Source of the DNA: a virus
Strand: one strand, 5' to 3'
Length of the DNA stretch: 64,000 nt
UHGV virus genome: UHGV-0390448
The translations under genes were made by a program, and so were the position numbers. The notes under the pieces were generated by a model, which was not told the DNA's origin, ran no database searches, and saw nothing but the letters and a program-made list of their open reading frames with translations. Position 1 is the stretch's first letter. Each line of letters opens with the position of its first letter. This document shows, one piece after another, positions 17,167 through 38,783 of the stretch.

Positions 17167-18864
17167 CTACTTTTTTTCGTTGATTTGCCCGCTCAACATG
17201 TCAATCGCACCTTCTTTCGAACGTGTCAGGCGAAGGCGAGTGAAATAGTTCTCACCGTTGCGCGGATGCACATCGTTGATTGCTTTGCCCCAAAAAGTGG
17301 TGCGGTTCACCAGGGCTGGATTTGTTTCGTGGACATACGGAATAGCAGGCACAGCATCACCTGCGACCAGGCCTGCTTTACCAATGCCTTCGCCACGACC
17401 ATAGAAATAGATGTCGTCCAGGCCGAAGTCGTAGCCATATTTCTGGAATTGTTTGCAGATAGGCTTCGGCACTTCGTAGATACGAATGGAACCAAACAGG
17501 GTGCCGATGTATTGAATGTACGGCGACTGTACATAGCCCGGTGCCAACTGGAAGTGCTGCGGCGGTAAGGAACGCAGGAAGTTAGCAGCATCGCCACCAG
17601 CAAAGCCACCACGGATACCGGTGGTCAGGGTGCGGTCAGCCATCTCCTGTGACAGCGCGTTCACAACATGGCGAATTAAACCAACCCACGACTCGTAGTT
17701 CTGCGCTTCTGGCAGTGCCACATCAAATTCACGACCGTAAACGGTGTGGAATACCAGAGTGCGCAGGCGCATCATATCGATTTCGTGGGAAATCCAGTTG
17801 CGCATTGCAGAGAATTGCAATGCTGCCAGTTCGAGTCCGTGTTCACGGCTCAGGTCAGATGCAGCCATAACCGTATGTTCGGATGCGATCACGTACTCCG
17901 ACGGGCGCAGGGCGTAATTGCGCATGGACTGGTTAATGACTGGTATCAGGTTCGGATTGCGTTCAATGTTGATTTCAACCTGAACAGCGATTTCAGTGCC
18001 TTCTGCTGGTGCTTCATTAAAGGTGATATCGATAACGCCGGTATCGTATCGAACCTTTGCCGTCACAGAGAAAGAGTTGCCGTTGACGTCTTTGTCGTTG
18101 AAATACAGGTTGCCATCACCATCATCTACTTTGGACGGTTTGCGGTTAATCAGCAGTTTGTTGTAGCCCTGGCGCAGCGGGCAGGCCTGGCCTTCGAAGT
18201 TCTGGATATCAAACTGGAAGGTGGTTTTGCTGCCATCGCCTTTTTCGGTCAGGATGTACAGGCGTTTCATCTGCGAATACACGCCAGCAGACTGCATGTT
18301 CAGTTCATCGCCCTGCTCGAATGTACCGAATTTTGTACCAGCAACGTTGGTCAGCTCGTAAATATTGGTTTCATCACGATCACAAGGGATAAACGTACAT
18401 GCGTCGCTGGTGGCTGCGCCGAGAGAAGCAGGCAGGATCAGTGCGGCATATTGTGCAACCTTCATTACACCATCGGAGGTGCGCATGTCCTTGGCTACTG
18501 ATTCAAACATGGCTTTGCCAGCGCCTTCATGCGTCTCTTTAGCGGACTCCATCATCAGGCGCTCAAGTGCCACATGGGCGTTGGCTAATACATCGCTTGC
18601 CGGATAATGCCCATACTGGCGTTTGTATTCATGAATAGACATGGCCCAGCTACCAATGATCTGGCGAGCTGCTTCTGGTTCAACGCCTTCAAACATAGGC
18701 TCTTTCTGGATAGCTTTTTCCAGGTTAGCCATCATCACTTCGTTGTCGGCAATCATGTTACCGGCAGCATCAGTGGTTGGATCGACGGTCATAGCCATGA
18801 CGCTTGCCGCCCGATTCATAATCTCGCGCTCGCGCTTACGAGCTGGCTCAATGTTCTTGTTCAC
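17167..18864 (-). CDS. Large virion structural protein (major head protein candidate)
   Basis: 565-aa ORF at the head of the structural block upstream of the Ig-like and sheath genes; assignment is positional. Confidence 0.3.
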   Translation of the reverse strand: MNKNIEPARKREREIMNRAASVMAMTVDPTTDAAGNMIADNEVMMANLEKAIQKEPMFEGVEPEAARQIIGSWAMSIHEYKRQYGHYPASDVLANAHVALERLMMESAKETHEGAGKAMFESVAKDMRTSDGVMKVAQYAALILPASLGAATSDACTFIPCDRDETNIYELTNVAGTKFGTFEQGDELNMQSAGVYSQMKRLYILTEKGDGSKTTFQFDIQNFEGQACPLRQGYNKLLINRKPSKVDDGDGNLYFNDKDVNGNSFSVTAKVRYDTGVIDITFNEAPAEGTEIAVQVEINIERNPNLIPVINQSMRNYALRPSEYVIASEHTVMAASDLSREHGLELAALQFSAMRNWISHEIDMMRLRTLVFHTVYGREFDVALPEAQNYESWVGLIRHVVNALSQEMADRTLTTGIRGGFAGGDAANFLRSLPPQHFQLAPGYVQSPYIQYIGTLFGSIRIYEVPKPICKQFQKYGYDFGLDDIYFYGRGEGIGKAGLVAGDAVPAIPYVHETNPALVNRTTFWGKAINDVHPRNGENYFTRLRLTRSKEGAIDMLSGQINEKK

Positions 18865-18939
18865 GGTTAAACCCTAAATTCGGGCGCGGCGTGAAGATTC
18901 TTTTGACGAGGTGACAATACTCACTTTGTTATTTAGTCA

Positions 18940-30236: not shown

Positions 30237-31105
30237 TCGATCACTCCGTTTTGAGTGGTATCAAAGTTCCTGGCCGGGATGCAGTAATAAAGGGAACCAA
30301 CGTGTTGTGTTCCGTAGCTGAAGATTCGATGCACGTACCACCAGCGGCGGGCGAGGCCATTCGCCATTTCTTCGTTCCATTCCAGGATTGAACCAACAGG
30401 TACGTTGTTTGCAGCAATACGCAGGATTAGCACTTCATCAGCAAGACCATCCTGTTCTCCATCGGCATCAATGGCATGAAACGAATCCCTTCCGTCCGGG
30501 TTATCCAGGACGTATACGATTTCCGGTTCCAGATAGGTAAGCTCACGCTGGTTGTTGTCCAGTTGCGTGAAAGACTCTTCACCTGTTTCATCGTTTACGA
30601 CGCCATAGGTGCCATCAGCCGGGCGATATAAAAGCGCCTCGAATGCGTCAGGGCTTGATTCAATAATGAGCATCCAATCGGCGCGGATCTGGTCGTTGAA
30701 CGCTTTGTGTCCGTTATATCGGGTTTTAAGCTGCTGGTTTGGTTGTCTGTTAGCGAGCGATGCCGGTAGGGGGGCGATGTCAGGTTCAATCACTTCCGTA
30801 ACAGAGTCACCAGCATTATCAGGCCAATTATCATGGCGGCTATCTGCTTCGGTGGCAGCGTGTTCTTCCAGAATACTGAATGGCCCTGTACTGACCTTCC
30901 CATTTTCCGTTGTGCTTCCTTCATTCGCTTCAACCGTCGTTGTCTCTTCTCTCTGCGTGCTGTCATGTTCTGTTCCCTTTCTCATCAGGCTTGCATCATC
31001 AGCAAACCATTCATCAAAACGGCCCATAAGCGTCCTCAAAGGTCGATTTATCAGGTATCGAGGGGCATTGTCAGGAGATTGTGATTTCAATTCATATCCC
31101 AGCAT
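30233..31105 (-). CDS. Hypothetical structural protein
   Basis: 290-aa ORF, first gene of the minus-strand module ending at the rdgC-like/dmt pair. Confidence 0.4.
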   Translation of the reverse strand: MLGYELKSQSPDNAPRYLINRPLRTLMGRFDEWFADDASLMRKGTEHDSTQREETTTVEANEGSTTENGKVSTGPFSILEEHAATEADSRHDNWPDNAGDSVTEVIEPDIAPLPASLANRQPNQQLKTRYNGHKAFNDQIRADWMLIIESSPDAFEALLYRPADGTYGVVNDETGEESFTQLDNNQRELTYLEPEIVYVLDNPDGRDSFHAIDADGEQDGLADEVLILRIAANNVPVGSILEWNEEMANGLARRWWYVHRIFSYGTQHVGSLYYCIPARNFDTTQNGVIE

Positions 31106-31871: not shown

Positions 31872-33068
31872 TCAAGAACCTTTCTTCACGTACTCCATAA
31901 ACATTTTTTCAGCTTGCTCAGGTGACGTTCCTGTCATGACCAGCGCATCAATGAACGCTTGCTTCTTCAGTGCGAATTGATCGGCAAGGCGTTGCTGAAG
32001 CTCCTTGTTTTTCTGTTTCTCACGTTGCAAGGCTGCTTCTTTTGCTGCTGCCCGTTTTTTTTGTGCATCGGACAACTTTCTGGCCCTGGTCAGCTGGTCA
32101 CGTAGCTTGTCAATCTTGCCGTTGTCCTTTGCCAGTTTTGTGCTTAAAGCGGCCTGGCGTTTCTGATAGAGCTTCCATTCACGTTTAGCTGCCTCAACAT
32201 TCGTTTTGCTGCTACGGTTTCGATTGAACGCCTTCTCGTCTTCTTTTGTGAAGTGTTTTGTCGTGCGGCGGCGATCGTCACCAAAGGCAACTTGCGTTGC
32301 AGCTTTTTGCAGGGCGCGAGCAATACTCATCTGCCAACTGGCAGACTGTAGTCGTGTCATTGAGTGGATCACATGTTTACAGGCGACGCCTTGCAGCTTA
32401 GGGTTGCGAACTTTTGGATAGGCGTATTCTTTTGGCGGGGCCAGGGCAAAGTTACCCGCAGTGGCGATGTAGCGATACCAGTATTGATGGCGACCGCAGT
32501 CACAGTCGAAAGACACTCGCCCGGCACACAGTGATTTTGTGACTTTCAGGGCTGATTTATCATCTTCTGCGATGTCATCGACCATCTGATCCCATTCTTC
32601 AAAACGTACCCGGACAATGTGGTGCTGGTGAACGGATATATCGGACGCTTCCACTCGGATATTAATCACATTGTGACGAAGAGATACGGGCGTAGCTCTT
32701 TTGATACCAGAACCGTCGTCTACGGCGTTATTTGCTCGCTTAATATCGATAGCCTGGCTGGACGCTACCAGTTGTGCGTATGTGATGCCAGCCGTCTTGC
32801 TGTCATATTTTTCGCGTGCTTTGCTTCGCAGCTTTTCGAAGCCTTTCAGATCGTCACGCGTAAAGAACGTGCCGCCTTTCTTTTTCCCCAGCTTAAGAAT
32901 GTCTTCGGCTGATTTATTCCTAAGCCTGCCCGGCGTGAGTGTCCTGTGCGCCTGGCGGCGTTTGCGGTTTTGCTCTTTCCTGATGAGTTCAAATACGCGT
33001 GTGAAATCCTTAGAGGACAGACCGTTAGTGATATATCGCCCGTCCTGATTTTTCAGGAAGTCAGGCAT
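31872..33068 (-). CDS. SWIM-type zinc-finger protein with basic coiled-coil C-terminus, function unknown
   Basis: 398 aa; CxC...CxH arrangement (FDCDCGRHQYWY ... VACKHVIH) and a K/R/Q-rich C-terminal coiled coil. Confidence 0.45.
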   Translation of the reverse strand: MPDFLKNQDGRYITNGLSSKDFTRVFELIRKEQNRKRRQAHRTLTPGRLRNKSAEDILKLGKKKGGTFFTRDDLKGFEKLRSKAREKYDSKTAGITYAQLVASSQAIDIKRANNAVDDGSGIKRATPVSLRHNVINIRVEASDISVHQHHIVRVRFEEWDQMVDDIAEDDKSALKVTKSLCAGRVSFDCDCGRHQYWYRYIATAGNFALAPPKEYAYPKVRNPKLQGVACKHVIHSMTRLQSASWQMSIARALQKAATQVAFGDDRRRTTKHFTKEDEKAFNRNRSSKTNVEAAKREWKLYQKRQAALSTKLAKDNGKIDKLRDQLTRARKLSDAQKKRAAAKEAALQREKQKNKELQQRLADQFALKKQAFIDALVMTGTSPEQAEKMFMEYVKKGS

Positions 33069-33390
33069 TTTCTATCTCCGGTGCCGAGCCAGCGTAATCG
33101 CGAATCTTGTTTCTTAGCCATGCTGCGTCAGGAAGAGTTAACGTTGTCCCTACCGGCATTTCTTCCATTTCTGACTCATGGCCCACCAGCACGCGAAATA
33201 CCCAGCGCAAATCAGCATTGCCATAGGCGCGATAGGCCGCCAGGTCTGAGCGATAAACCTCATCAATTTTTATCGTGTACTGGAAATTATCGGAGTGATA
33301 CTCCGATACCCGCTTGATCATCTCCTGATGGAATAGTGCGCGCAGCACATCGTCTTCAATGCATCGATCGTCGAGCCTGCTGTAACTCAT
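33061..33390 (-). CDS. Hypothetical protein, first gene of the two-gene SWIM module
   Basis: 109-aa ORF overlapping the start of the SWIM protein gene; preceded by an 8-bp-arm palindrome (33393-33427). Confidence 0.45.
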   Translation of the reverse strand: MSYSRLDDRCIEDDVLRALFHQEMIKRVSEYHSDNFQYTIKIDEVYRSDLAAYRAYGNADLRWVFRVLVGHESEMEEMPVGTTLTLPDAAWLRNKIRDYAGSAPEIENA

Positions 33391-33482: not shown

Positions 33483-33764
33483 TTATGCGTGGGAAAATAA
33501 TGGACGGATGTTTGGGCGAGCGGTTTGCGAAGCAACCCAAAGCTCATACTGGGATTGCATACCGGTCCACATTTCGGCACTGGTTCCAAGAGCGGACTCC
33601 AGACGAAGTGCCATATCAGCAGAAATACCTGTTTTTTCGTTCAGAATTCGGGAAAGTGCCGTGCGAGTAATGCCTAATGCAGCAGCTGCGTCTGTGACTG
33701 ACATGTCTCCCAAATATTCACGAAGAACCGCGCCTGGATGCGCGGGATTATGCATACGACTCAT
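33483..33764 (-). CDS. HigA/VapI-type HTH antitoxin-like protein (no cognate HigB adjacent)
   Basis: 93 aa with [13 protein letters not shown] and [38 protein letters not shown], the classical HigA signature. Confidence 0.65.
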
Positions 33765-34060
33765 ATGTGGAAAGCAACCCGTTTACCGGTTGGCAATTCA
33801 ACGTCCAGACTCAACTTTCCACCCATAGCCTCAACGTAACGTTTAAGCGTTGCTACTTTCAAGTCATTGCCTCGTTGTTCAAGTTTTGTGATGGCTGGTT
33901 GACTAATTCCCATCGCATCGGCAACTGTTTTTTGTGATAACTGAAGCTCCTCTCTCAACATCTGCAATCCGACTTCCAGAATCATTTCATCAGCCTGCTC
34001 TTTGATACGAGCTTGGCTTTCAGGGGATTGCGCAGCAATAACTTCTCTTAGAGTTCTCAT
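33761..34060 (-). CDS. XRE-family HTH antitoxin
   Basis: 99 aa with HTH ([21 protein letters not shown]), start overlapping the toxin stop. Confidence 0.6.
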
Positions 34061-34407
34061 TATTTTTTCTCAAGTTCTGCAAGATGGTTGGAAAATTCGT
34101 CGTCTGCAATCCGTATCATTCTTTCGTAGAACTTTTTATCGTTACTCTTATCTCCGGCGCACAGGATTATGGCTTGCCTTACCGGATCAAATGCGAAGAA
34201 TGCTCTGATAGGGCGACCAGCGTACTGAATCCGTAACTCCTTCATGTTTTTATGGCGTGAGCCTTTAACTGTGTCGGCATATGGCCTTGATAATGAAGGG
34301 CCATATGTTTCCAGATTGATCAGGTCAACCAGGATTTTTTCTTTTAATGCAGGTTCCTGTTCCTGGAACCATTCATCAAAAATTTTTCCAAAATAAATTT
34401 GCCACAT
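34060..34407 (-). CDS. RelE/ParE-superfamily toxin (Gp49/DUF891-like)
   Basis: 115 aa; toxin-first order with overlapping HTH antitoxin; sequence pattern of the phage Gp49-like killer family. Confidence 0.55.
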   Translation of the reverse strand: MWQIYFGKIFDEWFQEQEPALKEKILVDLINLETYGPSLSRPYADTVKGSRHKNMKELRIQYAGRPIRAFFAFDPVRQAIILCAGDKSNDKKFYERMIRIADDEFSNHLAELEKK

Positions 34408-34442
34408 AGTTATTCAAAATCCTTTTTAATAAACTACATGTT

Positions 34443-34479
34443 ATAAACTACAGGTTATATCATATAACCTGTAGTTTAT
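34443..34479. promoter_or_regulatory. Perfect 37-bp palindrome upstream of the toxin gene (probable autoregulatory operator)
   Basis: ataaactacaggttatat-c-atataacctgtagtttat, 36 nt upstream of the toxin start codon. Confidence 0.6.
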
Positions 34480-34512
34480 ATTTTCAAGGCCATTTTTTAT
34501 TCGATTTAGCAT

Positions 34513-35166
34513 TTAAAGTATCACGGTATCCTCATCAACTTCTTTCCCTGCCAGTGACTTTGGCTGGGAGGCTGCTGCTTTAACCTTCTCATGCCCAATA
34601 ATGGACAGGAACGAGGCCATTATCCCTGCTTTGTTTTCTTTCTCTACCGCTCCTGTCATTTGTTTCAGGTAATCCGCGCTGGCAACATTGTGGTATACCG
34701 TTGCATAGCAGCACAGAATCATCAGGATGTGCTCTGGTCGGATATCTTGCCAGTTAACTCGATAAACCTCTTCACCGTTGCCGTTGTATTCGGTATCGAC
34801 GATAGAGTCGGGGATCTCAAATGCCCCTTTGTTCTTGTCAGGCAGGGATAGCAGCCTTTGTAGTTTCAGCTCCCGGTATCTTTCCATGCCGACAATGATC
34901 GCCGCTCTGCCGTCGGCGTGCCGTGTTTTTAATGTTACCTGACTGGCACCTGTACCGGCTGAAATGGTTGGCGTGATTTCGTCAACCAGCACCTTAAATT
35001 CACTTTTACGCAGCTCGGCAATTGCTGGTGGAATTTTTCGTTTTTGTTCAATAGCAGATGCAGGGAGCGGCTTTACTTTGTCAATTACAAGCGCGCCGTC
35101 TTTCAGGACTGCCGTAGCCATCAGCGGCTTGTTAGTCGAAAGGCTGAATATTGCGATCTTTTGCAT
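34513..35166 (-). CDS. Hypothetical protein
   Basis: 217-aa ORF; no motif recognised. Confidence 0.45.
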   Translation of the reverse strand: MQKIAIFSLSTNKPLMATAVLKDGALVIDKVKPLPASAIEQKRKIPPAIAELRKSEFKVLVDEITPTISAGTGASQVTLKTRHADGRAAIIVGMERYRELKLQRLLSLPDKNKGAFEIPDSIVDTEYNGNGEEVYRVNWQDIRPEHILMILCCYATVYHNVASADYLKQMTGAVEKENKAGIMASFLSIIGHEKVKAAASQPKSLAGKEVDEDTVIL

Positions 35167-35190: not shown

Positions 35191-35217
35191 ACAAAAAAAG
35201 GCCGCACATGGCGGCCT
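35191..35217 (-). terminator. Minus-strand Rho-independent terminator-like hairpin in the leader of the 34513-35166 gene
   Basis: Plus strand aaaaaaa-ggccgc-acatg-gcggcc; on the minus strand the stem-loop is followed by a U7 tract; lies only about 25 nt upstream of the start codon. Confidence 0.5.
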
Positions 35218-35431
35218 GCTTTGGCGTTATGACTCCCTACCGCGCATCGGCTGAAAGTTAGTCGTCAAAAGAACCTTCAACGGGAGCCGTTTGCGTAATG
35301 GATTTTGTCCAGATTGTGATTTCCAGAATAGTGTCAACAATTTTTTTGAATTTTTTATTCGCTCTGAATTTGGCCTAGGTCATTTTGGCGTAGATGTTTG
35401 CTTTTGTAACATAAAGCTTCAGTTTGTTTAC

Positions 35432-36055
35432 ATGAAGGATGGTTTTGTGAAGTTAAGGGTTTTGGGAGCAGTGCTCGCGGTTATATTGGGGGGAGTTTCT
35501 CTTAATGCTGCCTATGCAGGCGCGTTACCTGCAAAGTATGAGGCTGGGCTGAAGGTGTTACGAAACGCCAAAACAAACTATACGCCTGATGAAGTTTCAA
35601 ACTATTGCCAGAAAGAAAATATCCCACTGAAACCTGTAGAGCCATTCTTTAAAAGCAACATAGAGTTCTGTGTATTTGCGTATGCAGCAGATGAAACAGG
35701 AAAGGCCATACAAAAGACAGGGTATTCCACCAAAGACACAATGTCAGTGTTAAGTAACGGCGTGTTGCAGTTTGAGCTTTATCGTCAGCAAGGAATGGGA
35801 GATCTATTGCAGCCTTTGTATGGTCTAGCATTGGTGCCGGAAGGTCAGCAGTTTCTGATCAAAAAAGGCCTCATGAGGCAGGAAGATGTAGCTGGTTTCG
35901 ATGCCATCGTTGCCTATGAAAAACAACTCAAGGAACAGCGCAATAAAAAACCATCTGCCTCATGCGTGCAAAGCAAAACAGCAGAATACAGCGCAGTGGC
36001 TGGGCCTTTAGCCCCACAAATGGCAGAGCAATGGTGTAAACAATACGGGCAATAA
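35432..36055 (+). CDS. Secreted protein with signal peptide, function unknown
   Basis: N-terminus MKDGFVKLRVLGAVLAVILGGVSLNAAYAG is a typical Sec signal peptide. Confidence 0.55.
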   Translation: MKDGFVKLRVLGAVLAVILGGVSLNAAYAGALPAKYEAGLKVLRNAKTNYTPDEVSNYCQKENIPLKPVEPFFKSNIEFCVFAYAADETGKAIQKTGYSTKDTMSVLSNGVLQFELYRQQGMGDLLQPLYGLALVPEGQQFLIKKGLMRQEDVAGFDAIVAYEKQLKEQRNKKPSASCVQSKTAEYSAVAGPLAPQMAEQWCKQYGQ

Positions 36056-36075
36056 GTTACGCAGCGGAGGCAGAA

Positions 36076-36468
36076 TTGAAAAGATTAGCTATTGCTTTAT
36101 TGGCAGCTTTCCCTTTGATCGCTCACGCCGGGAATTTACAAGTGAAGTGCGGTAGGTTTGATATAAAAATCTATCCGAACGCCATATTTCTGAATGGGAA
36201 TAAGGTCGATAACGCGCACCGGAAAACTGAATCTGACGTAATGAGCTATGTGTTCCAGGAGTATGCCGAGATGGGGGGAACTTACACGTTGTACTCGCTG
36301 GATGTTCCATCTCGCGGTGATATGACGTTATCTCATCAATGGCAGAACGCCGATGGCGAAGCTCTGCGCGAGGTTAAAACAGAAAAATGTGGCACTTTCC
36401 ATTCTTTTAAAGGGAAAGCGCCCAATGTTAAATCTACGCTTGAAAAACAGCGTGCTGGTGAGCTTTAA
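36076..36468 (+). CDS. Secreted protein with signal peptide, function unknown
   Basis: N-terminus MKRLAIALLAAFPLIAHAG. Confidence 0.55.
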   Translation: MKRLAIALLAAFPLIAHAGNLQVKCGRFDIKIYPNAIFLNGNKVDNAHRKTESDVMSYVFQEYAEMGGTYTLYSLDVPSRGDMTLSHQWQNADGEALREVKTEKCGTFHSFKGKAPNVKSTLEKQRAGEL

Positions 36469-36803
36469 ACCCCTTTAATCACGGAGATTTCGTTTCCCGC
36501 ACGATAGCGGCGGGGAACGGAACTCTCCATCAGGTCACGAATTACTCCCGCTTCACGCAGTTCCTCTGTCTCCCAGTATCTGTTTGTCACCAGGTCAAGG
36601 CTGGCAATGACTTTATGCCGGTCATTCGGCATTGCTTCTTTTTCAGCCATTATCATCAGTGAGAACTCTTCATCCAGTAGAATTTGATACCAGACTTTTG
36701 ACAGTTCCAACTCTCTAATGAGGGTGAAGCGCCGCTCAATTGTGGCAGCAGAATAAGTGAAATCTATTTTTTTGGTGGCATACATTTTGCTGTGTCCGGT
36801 CAC
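36465..36803 (-). CDS. Hypothetical protein
   Basis: 112-aa ORF downstream of the antirepressor gene on the same strand. Confidence 0.4.
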   Translation of the reverse strand: MTGHSKMYATKKIDFTYSAATIERRFTLIRELELSKVWYQILLDEEFSLMIMAEKEAMPNDRHKVIASLDLVTNRYWETEELREAGVIRDLMESSVPRRYRAGNEISVIKGV

Positions 36804-36842: not shown

Positions 36843-37769
36843 TTAACTAATAATCCAGTCGGTTGCTGCTACATCTTCTGGCTGCAAATCAATCGCACAG
36901 ATCTTACCGTCGCGAATGGTGCGCCAGTTTTTCCGTGAGCCTCTTTCGGGCCATACCCAGACACTTTCAGGCCAGGATGCTCGACGGCATACGGTTGCAT
37001 ACCCTGTTTTAATCTTCTCTCTGGCGGTATGCAACGACAGGTTTGCCTTTGGACTTTCAGGCACAGGATGGTGAATGGCCTGAAATAGCCCCATCCTGGG
37101 ATGATACCAGCGTTTGTTACGTGGTTCTGCCTCCGACATAACCTGCTTAAAGGCTTTCCGGAAGGGGGCCAGGGCCACAATGGAACGTCGCGCAAGCAAA
37201 CCGTCGGGAGTTAAAAACTCATGCGTATCAGTGGGTATCCGGTAAGCGTTGACCAGGTTACGGCATTTGGCTTCAGTCAGGCCACATTTCGCCGCCAACT
37301 GGCGGTAGCCAATGTAGCCTTCCGGAATATTGCCTTTCTTGATCTGCTCGACGGTTTCAGCGACTTTGGACACTTGTGCCGATACTTCGGCTACCTGGGC
37401 ATTAACAGCGTTGATCCGGCGTTCATGCTCAAGATGCATTTGCGCCATTTCAGCCAGGATTTCGGCTTTTGATTTTAACGGTCCCCTGGCATTCTCCAGT
37501 TCGCGCCAGCGGTCCACCAGCCGGGCGGTGAATTCCGGAGAGAGCTGTGCGACGACAATGATACTATCGCGCTTGCCTTGCTCGCCTTCGAAGACGTAAT
37601 AGCTCGCCGGGCGGCCTGCGGTGGGCTTTTCCTCAATTTGAGGAAAAGATATTACGCCCCGTTCCGCCAGGTGTTCAATGGTGCGTTTAACGTTATCAGG
37701 GCGCTTACCTACCAGTTCCGCGATCTCAATGCTGGTCATTGTCGCTTTTTGAGAGATGGACAGATTCAT
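36843..37769 (-). CDS. Rha-family antirepressor-like protein
   Basis: N-terminus MTSIEIAELVGKRPDNVKRTIEHL matches the phage Rha regulatory domain; position downstream of the icd-like ORF and c4-like RNA mirrors the P1 immI operon. Confidence 0.6.
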   Translation of the reverse strand: MNLSISQKATMTSIEIAELVGKRPDNVKRTIEHLAERGVISFPQIEEKPTAGRPASYYVFEGEQGKRDSIIVVAQLSPEFTARLVDRWRELENARGPLKSKAEILAEMAQMHLEHERRINAVNAQVAEVSAQVSKVAETVEQIKKGNIPEGYIGYRQLAAKCGLTEAKCRNLVNAYRIPTDTHEFLTPDGLLARRSIVALAPFRKAFKQVMSEAEPRNKRWYHPRMGLFQAIHHPVPESPKANLSLHTAREKIKTGYATVCRRASWPESVWVWPERGSRKNWRTIRDGKICAIDLQPEDVAATDWIIS

Positions 37770-37984: not shown

Positions 37985-38165
37985 ATTGGCAGCCTCCTTT
38001 GACTAAGTTAAGGAGCTACCGCGTGAGGTTCCAATCTCAATGGCGGTAGCACTGACTGGGTTGGAACTACCGGCGTCAAAGGGAACCGGCCTGCCTTTCG
38101 GCAGCCCAGCCAGCACTACCATTGATCTCTGAGCTAAACGCTAAGTATGGCTGTGCGATGGCATG

Positions 38166-38235
38166 ACACAAAAAAAGACGCTTTCGGCGTCTGTGTCGCC
38201 TTTGACATTATCCGGGGTTCCAATCCCGGCACCCG
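38166..38235 (-). ncRNA. Candidate c4-like antisense RNA (stem-loop with AUUGGAAC loop plus intrinsic terminator)
   Basis: Minus-strand hairpin CCGGG-AUUGGAAC-CCCGG (38212-38229) followed by terminator AGACGCCGAAAGCGUCU + U7 (38169-38192); complementary GUUCCAA site at 38061-38067 on the same strand upstream of the icd-like SD. Confidence 0.4.
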
Positions 38236-38783
38236 TTTTTCTAAGGTGCCGTAGAAATATACCCCACGATAATGCCTGGGCGCAACAGTCTGTATTTTTA
38301 TGCTTTGGAGGATTTCTTCCGGGCTTGTTTGCAAGCGTAGGCCATTGCTTTAGCTTTCACTTCATCCAGCTTTCCGGTGATCACTTCTTTTCCGAGAGTG
38401 ACAAACCAGTCATAGCAACCGCCAGTGATGTTCTGGATTTGAAAGTTGAGGTAGCGAACGGTCATTTTGACACCCCCAGCGCGAGTAAAGAATGCAGATT
38501 ATCGCGTGAGTGGCGGACAATGAGTGATGGGGAAAGACAGTAGTTGTTCATAGTGTAGTGACTCCTTGCTTTCGGAGCCGCCATCGACTGTTCCACGGTC
38601 TGGTGGCGGCGCAATAAAGGCTGGAACACCGTGAGTCAACGGGGGCTTTTCAGCCACCTATATTGCACCGCCATTGGTATGGCGGCGGCAATCATACGAA
38701 AAACCAAACGGTTTGTCTCAAAAAGTTGACCGGTGTACCAATCGGTTGTGAATGTACAACGGTGAATTTCACAATTCAACTTA

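Follow-up and report, generated by a model that had tools for sequence, protein, structure and literature searches.

In this work, we describe a conserved, structured RNA leader located directly upstream of mat, the maturation control gene of a D6-like (P1-related) phage-plasmid, and we propose, with a probability of about one half, that it is an attenuator which also yields a trans-acting small RNA. The DNA analysed, called here the window, is the whole 64,000-nucleotide stretch of virus genome UHGV-0390448. The leader, of about 105 nt, occupies positions 35193-35301 of the minus strand (covariance-model match at 35191-35301, 120-143 bits) and is composed of a three-way junction followed by an intrinsic terminator. 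One segment of the junction is complementary over 18 contiguous pairs to the 5'UTR of the major capsid gene. Read from sequence, these features point to two outputs of one transcript, one acting in cis on mat and the other in trans on the capsid mRNA.

The mat gene (34513-35166, minus strand) begins with ATG at 35166, preceded by the Shine-Dalgarno (SD) sequence GGAG at 35178-35175, and in relatives it is the lead gene of the mat-26-25 baseplate/tail operon. Two plus-strand genes stand on its upstream side: ORF A (35447-36055; a predicted secreted protein of 202 aa, predicted all-alpha, with four conserved cysteines, phrog_12786) and ORF B (36076-36468; predicted secreted, 130 aa, phrog_13864). 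Beyond them lies another minus-strand block, composed of a pmgF-like gene (36465-36803) followed by ant, icd and C4. The preliminary description had correctly recognised two plus-strand signal-peptide genes embedded between minus-strand blocks. It had also placed a hairpin with a U7 tract 25 nt before the start codon of the gene at 34513-35166 and treated it together with the secreted genes. The hairpin is present, at a distance of 26 nt when counted from the last U to the A of ATG; its grouping with the secreted genes is not supported by comparison with relatives. Where another cargo cassette is found (L012, L023 and L030), homology starts exactly at the leader promoter, beginning with its TTGACA, and the leader occurs as well in L122 and L124, which carry no divergent cargo gene. 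Judged by this distribution, the hairpin goes with mat and not with the cargo genes.

The terminator (35193-35217, minus strand), found by a terminator scan, reads AGGCCGC-CATGT-GCGGCCT followed by U7. Its stem (35217-35199) has seven pairs, six of them G-C, closing a 5-nt loop, and the U-tract (35199-35193) comes directly after it on the transcribed strand, which is the sequence form of an intrinsic terminator. The region shows no excess of terminator-like hairpins in general (9 found versus 7.0±2.6 expected), so the significance of this one rests on conservation and covariation and not on the scan. Across 21 distinct leader sequences the stem is paired in 100% of cells; two of its pairs covary, and the inner five pairs, GCCGC/GCGGC, are invariant. 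The L077 type has an interrupted U-tract (UUUCGCC), and its terminator may be weaker.

The order of parts is the one expected of an attenuator: promoter motif at 35324-35302, terminator at 35217-35193, SD at 35178-35175 and ATG at 35166, with no other promoter between. As the 26 nt from the U-tract to the ATG leave no room for a promoter, mat would be transcribed only by read-through of the hairpin. The promoter region (35302-35338, minus strand) contains TTGACA at 35338-35333 and the motif GGAAATCACAATCTGGACAAAAT at 35324-35302, with a -10-like CAAAAT at 35307-35302; the relatives have a -10 of the TAnnnT form at the same distance. In its general form, GGAAATCACAAWCT..ACAWAMT, the motif is present at three minus-strand sites of the window, each upstream of a gene; besides the leader, two other operons share it. 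Transcription of the leader would start at about 35296.

The fold upstream of the terminator was obtained from minimum-free-energy predictions and comprises a three-way junction at 35231-35288 (minus strand). Helix P1 is formed by 35288-35282 with 35237-35231, helix P2 by 35279-35272 with 35259-35252, closing the loop CUUUUGACGACU (35271-35260), and helix P3 by 35251-35248 with 35242-35239. Among the 21 leaders, 90.1% of cells are paired and 19 of 26 pairs are changed on both sides (five of seven in P1, all eight in P2 and all four in P3), as compared with 8.0±1.5 in shuffles, none of 500 of which reached the observed value; in slid controls only 4-7 pairs changed on both sides. These counts come from alignments guided by the covariance model, since plain MAFFT misregistered the junction stems and thereby defeated RNAalifold. 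The loop motif UUUUGAC.A and a GCGC.G motif (GCGCGG) are invariant in the same set. Between the window and D6 the leader is 95.4% identical and the promoter region 89%, while the mat coding sequence is 79.5% identical (third codon positions 51%) and the flanks 59-70%. No upstream ORF is conserved within the leader; the AUGs present in the window are absent from D6 and from the Enterobacter type.

The element lies directly upstream of mat in every tested D6-like, Enterobacter, Pantoea, Salmonella and environmental relative (61-144 bits), and Xenorhabdus elements also carry a leader match before mat (28-34 bits, E 4e-7 to 2e-5). A search of Rfam 15 (E up to 1) found no family on window positions 35191-35301, on P1 2700-2815, on Xenorhabdus L040 or on L077, and literature searches, which did not cover the P1 genome paper, gave no description of a leader or terminator before mat. 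The earlier suggestion that the hairpin could be an attenuator or the 3' end of a small RNA is well supported by this anatomy. We extend it to a conserved, covarying RNA, which begins at a phage promoter motif and has the hairpin as its end; the termination it presupposes is here deduced from the hairpin and its U-tract.

The same distribution bears on a more ordinary explanation, namely that the hairpin simply terminates minus-strand transcription of the C4-icd-ant-pmgF operon and that conservation upstream of it is incidental. The two converging genes, ORF B and the pmgF-like gene, run into each other at their stop codons (36465-36468) without a strong terminator between them, and the hairpin is the next strong minus-strand terminator that such transcripts would meet. 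Yet the element stays with mat where the ant operon or any cargo is absent (L122-L128, P1 and Xenorhabdus), it has its own promoter motif, and the fold upstream of the hairpin covaries, so we regard this explanation as very improbable.

Equally improbable is a riboswitch-like attenuator, in which a ligand or factor would stabilise the junction, and in its absence the 5' strand of P1 would pair with the terminator 5' arm as an antiterminator. Leaders truncated before the terminator 3' arm do often fold the 5' arm with the 5' region, for example as UAGCGG/CCGCUA in the L077 type; shuffled 5' segments, however, pair equally well with the G+C-rich arm (mean z -0.36, p 0.03-0.78), and for the window and the D6 clade z lies near 0. 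After this shuffle control we rejected the idea of a mutually exclusive, conserved antiterminator pairing, which had looked convincing by eye in the truncated folds.

In P1 the parts follow each other as they do in the window: late promoter, three-way junction, terminator, SD and ATG. The order promoter-terminator-SD-ATG is likewise kept in Xenorhabdus. When the D6-type covariance model (R2) was applied to P1 with filters off, the terminator part alone was matched, with 10 bits; as the model misses the P1 leader, the correspondence of P1 and D6 leaders is architectural and we claim no statistical homology. The P1 leader RNA would start at about 2703. The P1 reference annotation treats this stretch as Mat coding sequence, and our analysis revises the likely start of P1 Mat, for which ATG 2827 and ATG 2716 are the candidates. 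A point against our model is that the classical mat phenotype was obtained with amber mutants and so belongs to the protein (PMC10695390). Neither Mat nor the pmgF-like protein gave a Pfam or NCBIfam match, and PHROGs assigns both to families of unknown function only; for Mat, our results suggest a stand-alone protein that looks like a terminase nuclease.

The trans output is proposed from complementarity between the leader and the major capsid mRNA. The leader segment at 35262-35279 (minus strand), which includes the 5' arm of P2 and its loop, forms 18 contiguous pairs, one of them G.U, with the predicted site UCGUCAAAAGAAUCUUCA at 18892-18909 (minus strand), situated in the 5'UTR of the major capsid gene (17167-18864, minus strand, GTG start), a gp23 homologue. 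None of 5076 background windows matched this 18-bp pairing, and the capsid site is the best trans site within the whole window. A 20-mer search allowing at most three mismatches returned only the segment itself and the capsid UTR site, and none of 100 shuffles gave a match. In the D6 type the pairing is 17 bp, all Watson-Crick (background fraction 0.0002), and in the Enterobacter type also 17 bp, preserved via G.U-compatible changes (0.0004). In P1 it is 13 bp, made by sequences that differ in both partners, a modest complementarity (background fraction 0.02). Non-cognate combinations of leader and UTR give just 7 and 9 bp. The capsid site is invariant in a UTR alignment of E. coli, Shigella and Enterobacter relatives. 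Extended complementarity to an mRNA, conserved or covarying, as expected of a trans-acting small RNA, is seen on three sequence states; capsid UTRs of the L044, L070, L077 and Xenorhabdus types are not among them. Protein-guided and exact-pattern scans of viral contigs for capsid 5'UTRs of other clades led to D6-like or Enterobacter-type loci or to random matches only.

The complementarity has to be weighed against a leader and terminator acting in cis only, which would silence a nuclease-like Mat and the baseplate operon in the lysogen and insulate them from upstream transcription, the capsid complementarity reflecting a shared protein motif or common descent. Much of the anatomy (promoter, terminator, SD, gene) is satisfied by this simpler scheme; leaky expression of Mat, predicted to be nuclease-like, could be harmful, and co-directional upstream genes of the relatives (ref and others) would otherwise transcribe into mat. 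The invariant terminator stem and GCGCGG are also what would be expected of a site recognised by a factor, and the invariance of GCCGC/GCGGC and GCGCGG falls outside what our two-output model explains. On the other hand, a covarying 60-nt three-way junction with an invariant loop is superfluous for a simple insulator. The 17-18 bp are kept across clades and re-created in P1 with different sequence, for which chance is hard to credit, and a site shared at the DNA or protein level need not sit in opposite orientation inside two transcripts. For these reasons we consider the cis-only scheme a serious, though rather doubtful, explanation.

The same leader-capsid complementarity would also be expected if regulation ran in the reverse direction, with the abundant capsid mRNA leader pairing with the nascent mat leader, unfolding P2 and the junction and altering termination, so that mat and the baseplate genes would be coupled to the level of capsid mRNA. 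One strand of P2 belongs to the pairing segment, and the junction therefore has to break up when the segment pairs; the search for an internal antiterminator helix was negative, so that a trigger acting in trans is conceivable. Against this stand the lack of any feature tying junction integrity to terminator formation, the two being at least 13 nt apart, and the kinetic demands of acting on a nascent RNA during transcription. We find this direction of control unlikely.

The two-output reading that we prefer can be laid out as follows. A phage-specific promoter would drive minus-strand transcription of the leader, whose end would lie 26 nt before the mat ATG. Most transcripts would stop at the terminator, which would be the first output, attenuation; read-through transcripts alone would give Mat and, in relatives, the downstream 26-25 baseplate/tail genes. 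With Mat and 26-25 made only from read-through, the terminator would throttle or gate their expression. The terminated RNA would accumulate as a stable small RNA with the three-way junction, being the second output, and its P2 5' arm and apical loop (UGAAGGUUCUUUUGACGA) would bind in the cell, by base pairing, to the 5'UTR of the major-capsid mRNA. The target site overlaps UUCACG (18895-18890), which is predicted to fold onto the start-codon region CGUGAA (18865-18860). The capsid start codon would thus be buried in a stem whose 5' strand overlaps the site, and a leader paired there is predicted to open this stem and, by an anti-antisense mechanism, to activate capsid translation. Half of the pairing segment is itself held within the P2 stem, and full pairing requires its opening. 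The model further predicts that capsid UTRs of other clades carry sites like GUCAAAAGUACCCUC or GUCAAAAAUUCCAUC, or variants differing by wobble pairs only.

The secreted pair on the plus strand is a subject of its own. ORF A is open in frame from 35291, and homologues together with the ribosome binding site place its start at GTG 35447 (or ATG 35432); its N-terminus reads MKLRVLGAVLAVILGGVSLNAAYA followed by GALP. ORF B starts with TTG behind the SD sequence GGAGG (36066-36070), and its N-terminus reads MKRLAIALLAAFPLIAHA followed by GNLQ. Both have a basic n-region, a hydrophobic h-region (mean Kyte-Doolittle value 2.1-2.5) and an AXA cleavage motif, and they were called Sec-type signal peptides by inspection and hydropathy. 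A promoter-like site for ORF A (35385-35412, plus strand), a match to consensus only, consists of TTGGCG, a 16-nt spacer and TAACAT; TAACATAAA is invariant in it, and D6-type relatives have TTGATT or TTGATG as -35. No clear plus-strand terminator follows ORF B, which overlaps the convergent pmgF-like gene.

The term "moron-like" used in the preliminary description is fair for ORF A and ORF B, given their own promoter-like site, a slightly lower GC content (43-47% versus 49-53% in the neighbours) and a presence that varies among collinear relatives. The slot is occupied by ORF A with ORF B, by ORF A with a SimB-like gene, by a SimB-like gene alone, by a colicin-M-domain protein or by nothing. 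In Enterobacter-type relatives ORF B continues the reading frame of an ORF A-like domain as a fusion, which predicts that the two proteins interact. The preliminary description mentioned superinfection exclusion as a frequent role of secreted morons. Phage D6 has in the same slot the SimB-like gene orf79, whose product is 49% identical to P1 SimB/SimC over 92 aa, and variability at the simB locus was noted before (PMC6799933). Neither ORF A nor ORF B aligned significantly with the D6 SimB-like protein (E 0.5-4), and neither had a Pfam or NCBIfam match; PHROGs assigns both to families of unknown function only. Of the AlphaFold models of ORF A, four were poor, and the remaining one (pLDDT 74) had no significant match in the PDB. 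By this comparison of gene content, ORF A and ORF B are swappable cargo in a variable slot, and this slot is a recombination hot spot for cargo directed at the envelope, with SimB-like, colicin-M-like and orphan proteins as known occupants.

Several known systems resemble the mat leader in part. IsrK of Salmonella Gifsy-1 (Rfam RF01394) is likewise a prophage RNA with an intrinsic terminator directly upstream of coding genes, and, as a precedent for two outputs, it exists as terminated and read-through forms with distinct functions, the short form activating translation by base pairing (PMC4825925). It has no sequence or structure similarity to the mat leader, whose three-way junction is a different fold, and it pairs with its own read-through isoform, whereas the predicted partner of the mat leader is the major capsid gene, about 16 kb away. 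An isrK-like RNA is present in the window at 38171-38249 (Rfam). The P1 C4 antisense RNA of the immI operon (Rfam RF01695) is also a small structured RNA of the same phage family, and it base-pairs with phage mRNA as we propose for the leader; it differs in family and fold, is cut by RNase P from a precursor and represses ant, while the mat leader has a terminator end and precedes a late gene. Two stretches of the window (38039-38126 and 38599-38678) match C4, one copy passing the Rfam threshold with 77 bits and the other being a weaker, C4-like match.

The lambda PR'/6S RNA/tR' system shares with the mat leader a late promoter, a short terminated leader, a strong intrinsic terminator and structural genes expressed by read-through. 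In lambda the block is relieved by Q, while no Q-like antiterminator or qut-type site was identified at the mat leader; late promoters of the P1 family depend on Lpa and SspA. Lambda 6S RNA is not known to form a three-way junction that is conserved, covaries and has a target in trans. Pairing with the 5' strand of an inhibitory 5'UTR stem that occludes the start region, as predicted for the mat leader, is known from DsrA/RprA/ArcZ with rpoS and from RNAIII with hla; those RNAs are chromosomal, Hfq-dependent and use single-stranded seeds, in contrast to the hairpin arm and loop of the mat leader. The put RNAs of HK022 are, like the leader, promoter-proximal stem-loop RNAs upstream of terminators in a phage operon, yet they comprise two stem-loops without a terminator of their own and act on RNA polymerase, and our tests of the mat leader gave no sign of such activity.

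Few phages are used in genetics as heavily as P1, and in Enterobacterales resistance genes are commonly carried by P1/D6-like phage-plasmids. As far as we know, late development of P1 is currently described only via C1, Lpa and SspA. It is possible, and we put it forward tentatively, that the mat leader is an unrecognised regulator of morphogenesis in the P1 family, which, made from the late mat promoter, activates capsid translation by opening the capsid 5'UTR while its terminator meters the Mat/baseplate operon, one RNA coordinating head and tail. With a conserved structured RNA ahead of an essential late gene, the late development of P1 would gain one more level of regulation. The point is sharpened in three ways: Rfam lacks this RNA, the P1 reference presents it as protein, and a specific target, in the major-capsid mRNA, is predicted for it.

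The minus-strand hairpin AGGCCGC-CATGT-GCGGCCT (35217-35199), recovered by the terminator scan and running into a U7 tract (35199-35193), is real, as the preliminary description had it, and lies 26 nt before the ATG of the mat gene (34513-35166, minus strand) at 35166; the mat Shine-Dalgarno sequence GGAG is found at 35178-35175 on the same strand. Terminator-like sites are not over-represented as a class in the region (9 found vs 7.0 ± 2.6 expected), so the scan by itself proves nothing. In the alignment with phage D6, a block of about 105 nt stays nearly invariant while the adjoining mat codons diverge. This block, the mat leader (35301-35193, minus strand), is 95.4% identical to D6 and its promoter 89%, against 79.5% for the mat coding sequence (51% at third codon positions), 59% for the 26 nt past the terminator and 70% for the spacer towards ORF A, one of two neighbouring plus-strand genes for secreted proteins.

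The leader block is present in 37/37 D6-like loci examined. In three of them (L012, L023 and L030) the upstream cassette is unrelated and homology starts exactly at the TTGACA of the leader promoter, and Salmonella, Pantoea and other relatives are without a divergent cargo gene. The order in the Salmonella/Pantoea-type relatives is ref, a variable gene, leader, mat, 26 and 25, with the mat stop codon overlapping the start of gene 26. Since the leader is kept with other cargo or none, and with mat-26-25 behind it, it heads mat and, ancestrally, the baseplate/tail operon; bundling the hairpin with the cargo genes, as was done initially, is not supported. A first covariance model, built from 3 near-identical seed sequences, placed the element directly upstream of mat in every relative tested, and a second one (13 distinct sequences) also matched at full length, with 28-34 bits and E 4e-7 to 2e-5, in Xenorhabdus elements that share only 37-40% Mat identity, and it matched in seven further loci. 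Rfam has no matching family for the element of the window, phage P1, Xenorhabdus or the relative L077.

When leaders of the window, the Enterobacter type, the P1 type and others are folded by minimum free energy, one architecture recurs: helix P1 closes the structure, P2 is a hairpin with an 11-15-nt loop and P3 a short one, and a linker leads to the terminator. Among 21 distinct leader sequences, standard pairs occupy 90.1% of cells and 19/26 pairs have changed on both sides, compared with 8.0 ± 1.5 two-sided pairs in shuffled controls (0/500 reaching 19). The alignments were fitted to the covariance model, which favours structure, but slid controls, with 4-7 two-sided pairs, argue against an artefact. 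The 21 leaders do not vary in the loop motif of P2 (UUUUGAC.A), in GCGC.G or in the five inner terminator pairs GCCGC/GCGGC. A plain hairpin would not need such strict invariance of GCCGC/GCGGC and GCGCGG, and no model here accounts for it. The invariant parts correspond in the window to the terminator stem (35199-35217) and GCGCGG (35239-35247), in leaders otherwise diverged. The 5' tail CGCGCU of D6-type leaders is able to pair with AGCGCG, and the clade of the window carries one compensatory change in this tail pairing (UGCGCA/UGCGCG).

The leader is preceded by the promoter motif GGAAATCACAATCTGGACAAAAT (35324-35302, minus strand); relatives retain a TAnnnT-type -10 at an equal distance, and the corresponding position of phage P1 is annotated as the late promoter Pmat/LPmat; we infer a transcription start near 35296. 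The motif recurs at 2474-2496 and 31067-31088 (minus strand), each copy just upstream of a gene. These copies, in front of minus-strand genes, share the consensus GGAAATCACAAWCT...ACAWAMT, which differs from the phage P1 -22 box AAGTGACTT and may be a D6-type late-promoter signature. With only 26 nt from the U-tract to the ATG, mat can be transcribed only by read-through of the hairpin, so that anatomically the locus is an attenuator. When the leader is folded without the 3' arm of the terminator, the 5' arm often pairs with the leader 5' end; a riboswitch-like antiterminator is not supported, as shuffled 5' segments pair equally well (mean z -0.36). The leader has no conserved upstream ORF.

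In the phage P1 reference (NC_005856), the LPmat -10 (2691-2696) is followed by a closing helix of 9 bp (GCCCGGTAC...GTACCGGGC), an inner hairpin whose loop is CCCUUUUCAAAUAU, a terminator-like hairpin AAGCCGCC...GGTGGCTTTTCTTTTTT, and a Shine-Dalgarno sequence GGGGG with ATG 2827, the position at which every other Mat protein starts in the alignment. Covariation in the closing helix is seen among phage P1, L092 and L094 (GGUAC/GUACC, GGUGC/GCACC, GGCGC/GCGCC). The D6-type covariance model detected no leader in phage P1 beyond the terminator, so the likeness is described as architectural. The reference annotation starts mat at 2716 and hence reads through leader and terminator. Between the terminator and ATG 2827, many natural P1-like variants read GGGG for GGGGG, and because this one-G difference would break the annotated frame, the true start is most probably 2827 and the annotated N-terminus probably wrong. 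A strong hairpin with a U8 tract (GGCGGCCAUUAGGCCGCC-U8, 2040-2071) also precedes the phage P1 gene ref, downstream of its annotated promoters and ending 5 nt before the start codon; this phage family may repeatedly place terminator-like hairpins right in front of start codons.

A search with the antisense of the P2 5' arm and loop (20-mer, at most 3 mismatches) matched one other site in the window, 18890-18909 (minus strand), with 0/100 shuffles giving a match. This site lies in the 5'UTR of the 565-aa major capsid gene, a homologue of phage P1 gp23. The predicted duplex, leader 35279-35262 with UTR 18909-18892, has 18 contiguous pairs including one G.U, a run reached by 0/5076 background windows; it is the best trans site in the window, the other runs of at least 13 pairs all being wobble-rich. 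E. coli, Shigella and Enterobacter relatives show no variation at the UTR site. D6-type partners form 17 Watson-Crick pairs, and the Enterobacter type, with GAGGG in the leader where the window has GAAGG and CUUUC in the UTR where the D6 type has CCUUC, keeps 17 bp by means of G.U pairs; non-cognate combinations reach only 7-9 bp. Both partners differ in sequence in phage P1, where a 13-bp duplex joins UGGAUCCCUUUUC of the leader to GAAAAGGGAUUCA, which follows closely on the late promoter LP23; about 2% of background windows equal this length. In the predicted UTR fold of the window and the Enterobacter type, UUCAC(G) (18895-18890) pairs with (C)GUGAA, the strand containing the capsid GTG start codon, and the leader-pairing site overlaps the 5' strand of this start-codon stem; in phage P1, CUCUUCC beside the site is predicted to pair with the Shine-Dalgarno sequence GGAAGAG. 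Anti-antisense activators have the same geometry; the direction and sign of any effect on the capsid mRNA are inferred.

Phage D6 and over 120 phage-plasmids of Escherichia, Salmonella and Shigella, about 90 kb in size, match this region. On the minus strand, gene 25-like (31872-33068) and gene 26-like (33061-33390) reading frames are separated from mat in the window by an inserted toxin-antitoxin module (33483-34407) that comprises a RelE-like and two HigA-like genes, whereas mat and 26 overlap in relatives. A 39-bp perfect palindrome (34442-34480) and a third half-site (34429-34445) are probably the operator of this module; the palindrome region (34429-34487) overlaps the promoter-like TTGAAA-17-TATGAT in front of it. 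Beyond the plus-strand genes come a pmgF-like gene (36465-36803), the gene of a Rha/Ant antirepressor (36843-37769) and icd. An immI-like region (38039-38678, minus strand) upstream of icd and ant holds a C4 RNA (38039-38126, 77 bits), an isrK-like RNA (38171-38249, minus strand, 62.7 bits) and a weaker second C4-like copy (39.5 bits, under the gathering score).

The two plus-strand genes were rightly read as encoding signal peptides: the N-termini of ORF A and ORF B (36076-36468) are of textbook Sec type and end in AYA|G and AHA|G. The GC comparison proposed for them gave a modestly lower content, 43-47% vs 49-53% in neighbours. ORF A was listed from 35291, and RefSeq relatives annotate 254 aa from the equivalent TTG, a stretch (35291-35446) overlapping the leader 5' end and promoter; homologues of 202-209 aa and an AAGGA ribosome-binding site favour GTG 35447. 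A conserved promoter-like site, TTGGCG-16-TAACAT, precedes ORF A. The stop codons of ORF B and the convergent pmgF-like gene overlap (36465-36468) with no terminator between, so ant-operon transcription would cross both genes antisense up to the leader terminator. Among 5.8 billion proteins, homologues form only 7 clusters for ORF A (phrog_12786) and 11 for ORF B (phrog_13864), all named sources being enterobacteria, and neither they nor their homologues contain a Pfam domain. ORF A is predicted to be all-alpha, with four conserved cysteines and no structural neighbour in the PDB.

The cargo slot is a mosaic, and its simB locus was already noted to be variable in D6-like prophages (PMC6799933). 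Most relatives have ORF A and ORF B there; L007, L008 and L015 combine ORF A with a SimB-like gene; D6 and others have only the SimB-like gene; and some have nothing. In D6 the first codons of the ORF A signal peptide are kept, fused to the SimB-like ORF. In L128 the slot, divergent from the mat leader, is taken by a gene (266-1048) for 260 aa with a colicin M domain (PF14859). Enterobacter-type elements encode a single secreted protein of 277 aa in which an ORF A-like domain is joined to the mature part of ORF B, and this fusion suggests that the two window proteins cooperate. The fused protein is found in the Enterobacter-type plasmids L005 (1966-2799) and L035, evidence of the Rosetta-stone type. 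Only the genes sharing the slot suggest an envelope-directed role of the pair, e.g. exclusion or immunity.

The hairpin had been proposed to be an attenuator or the 3' end of a small RNA; the former stands by anatomy (promoter, terminator, mat), and a terminated small RNA is favoured from sequence. The pairing geometry together with the attenuator anatomy favours a mat-leader locus with two outputs, in which one would be an attenuator for mat and the other a terminated small RNA acting on the capsid mRNA. The nearest precedent for such a leader is IsrK of Gifsy-1 (PMC4825925), and the element appears to belong to known kinds, the leader attenuator and the base-pairing small RNA. On comparative sequence evidence, the hairpin is of more interest than first suggested: it marks a conserved RNA family of P1-related phage-plasmids that had not been described, and for which a specific mRNA partner is predicted.
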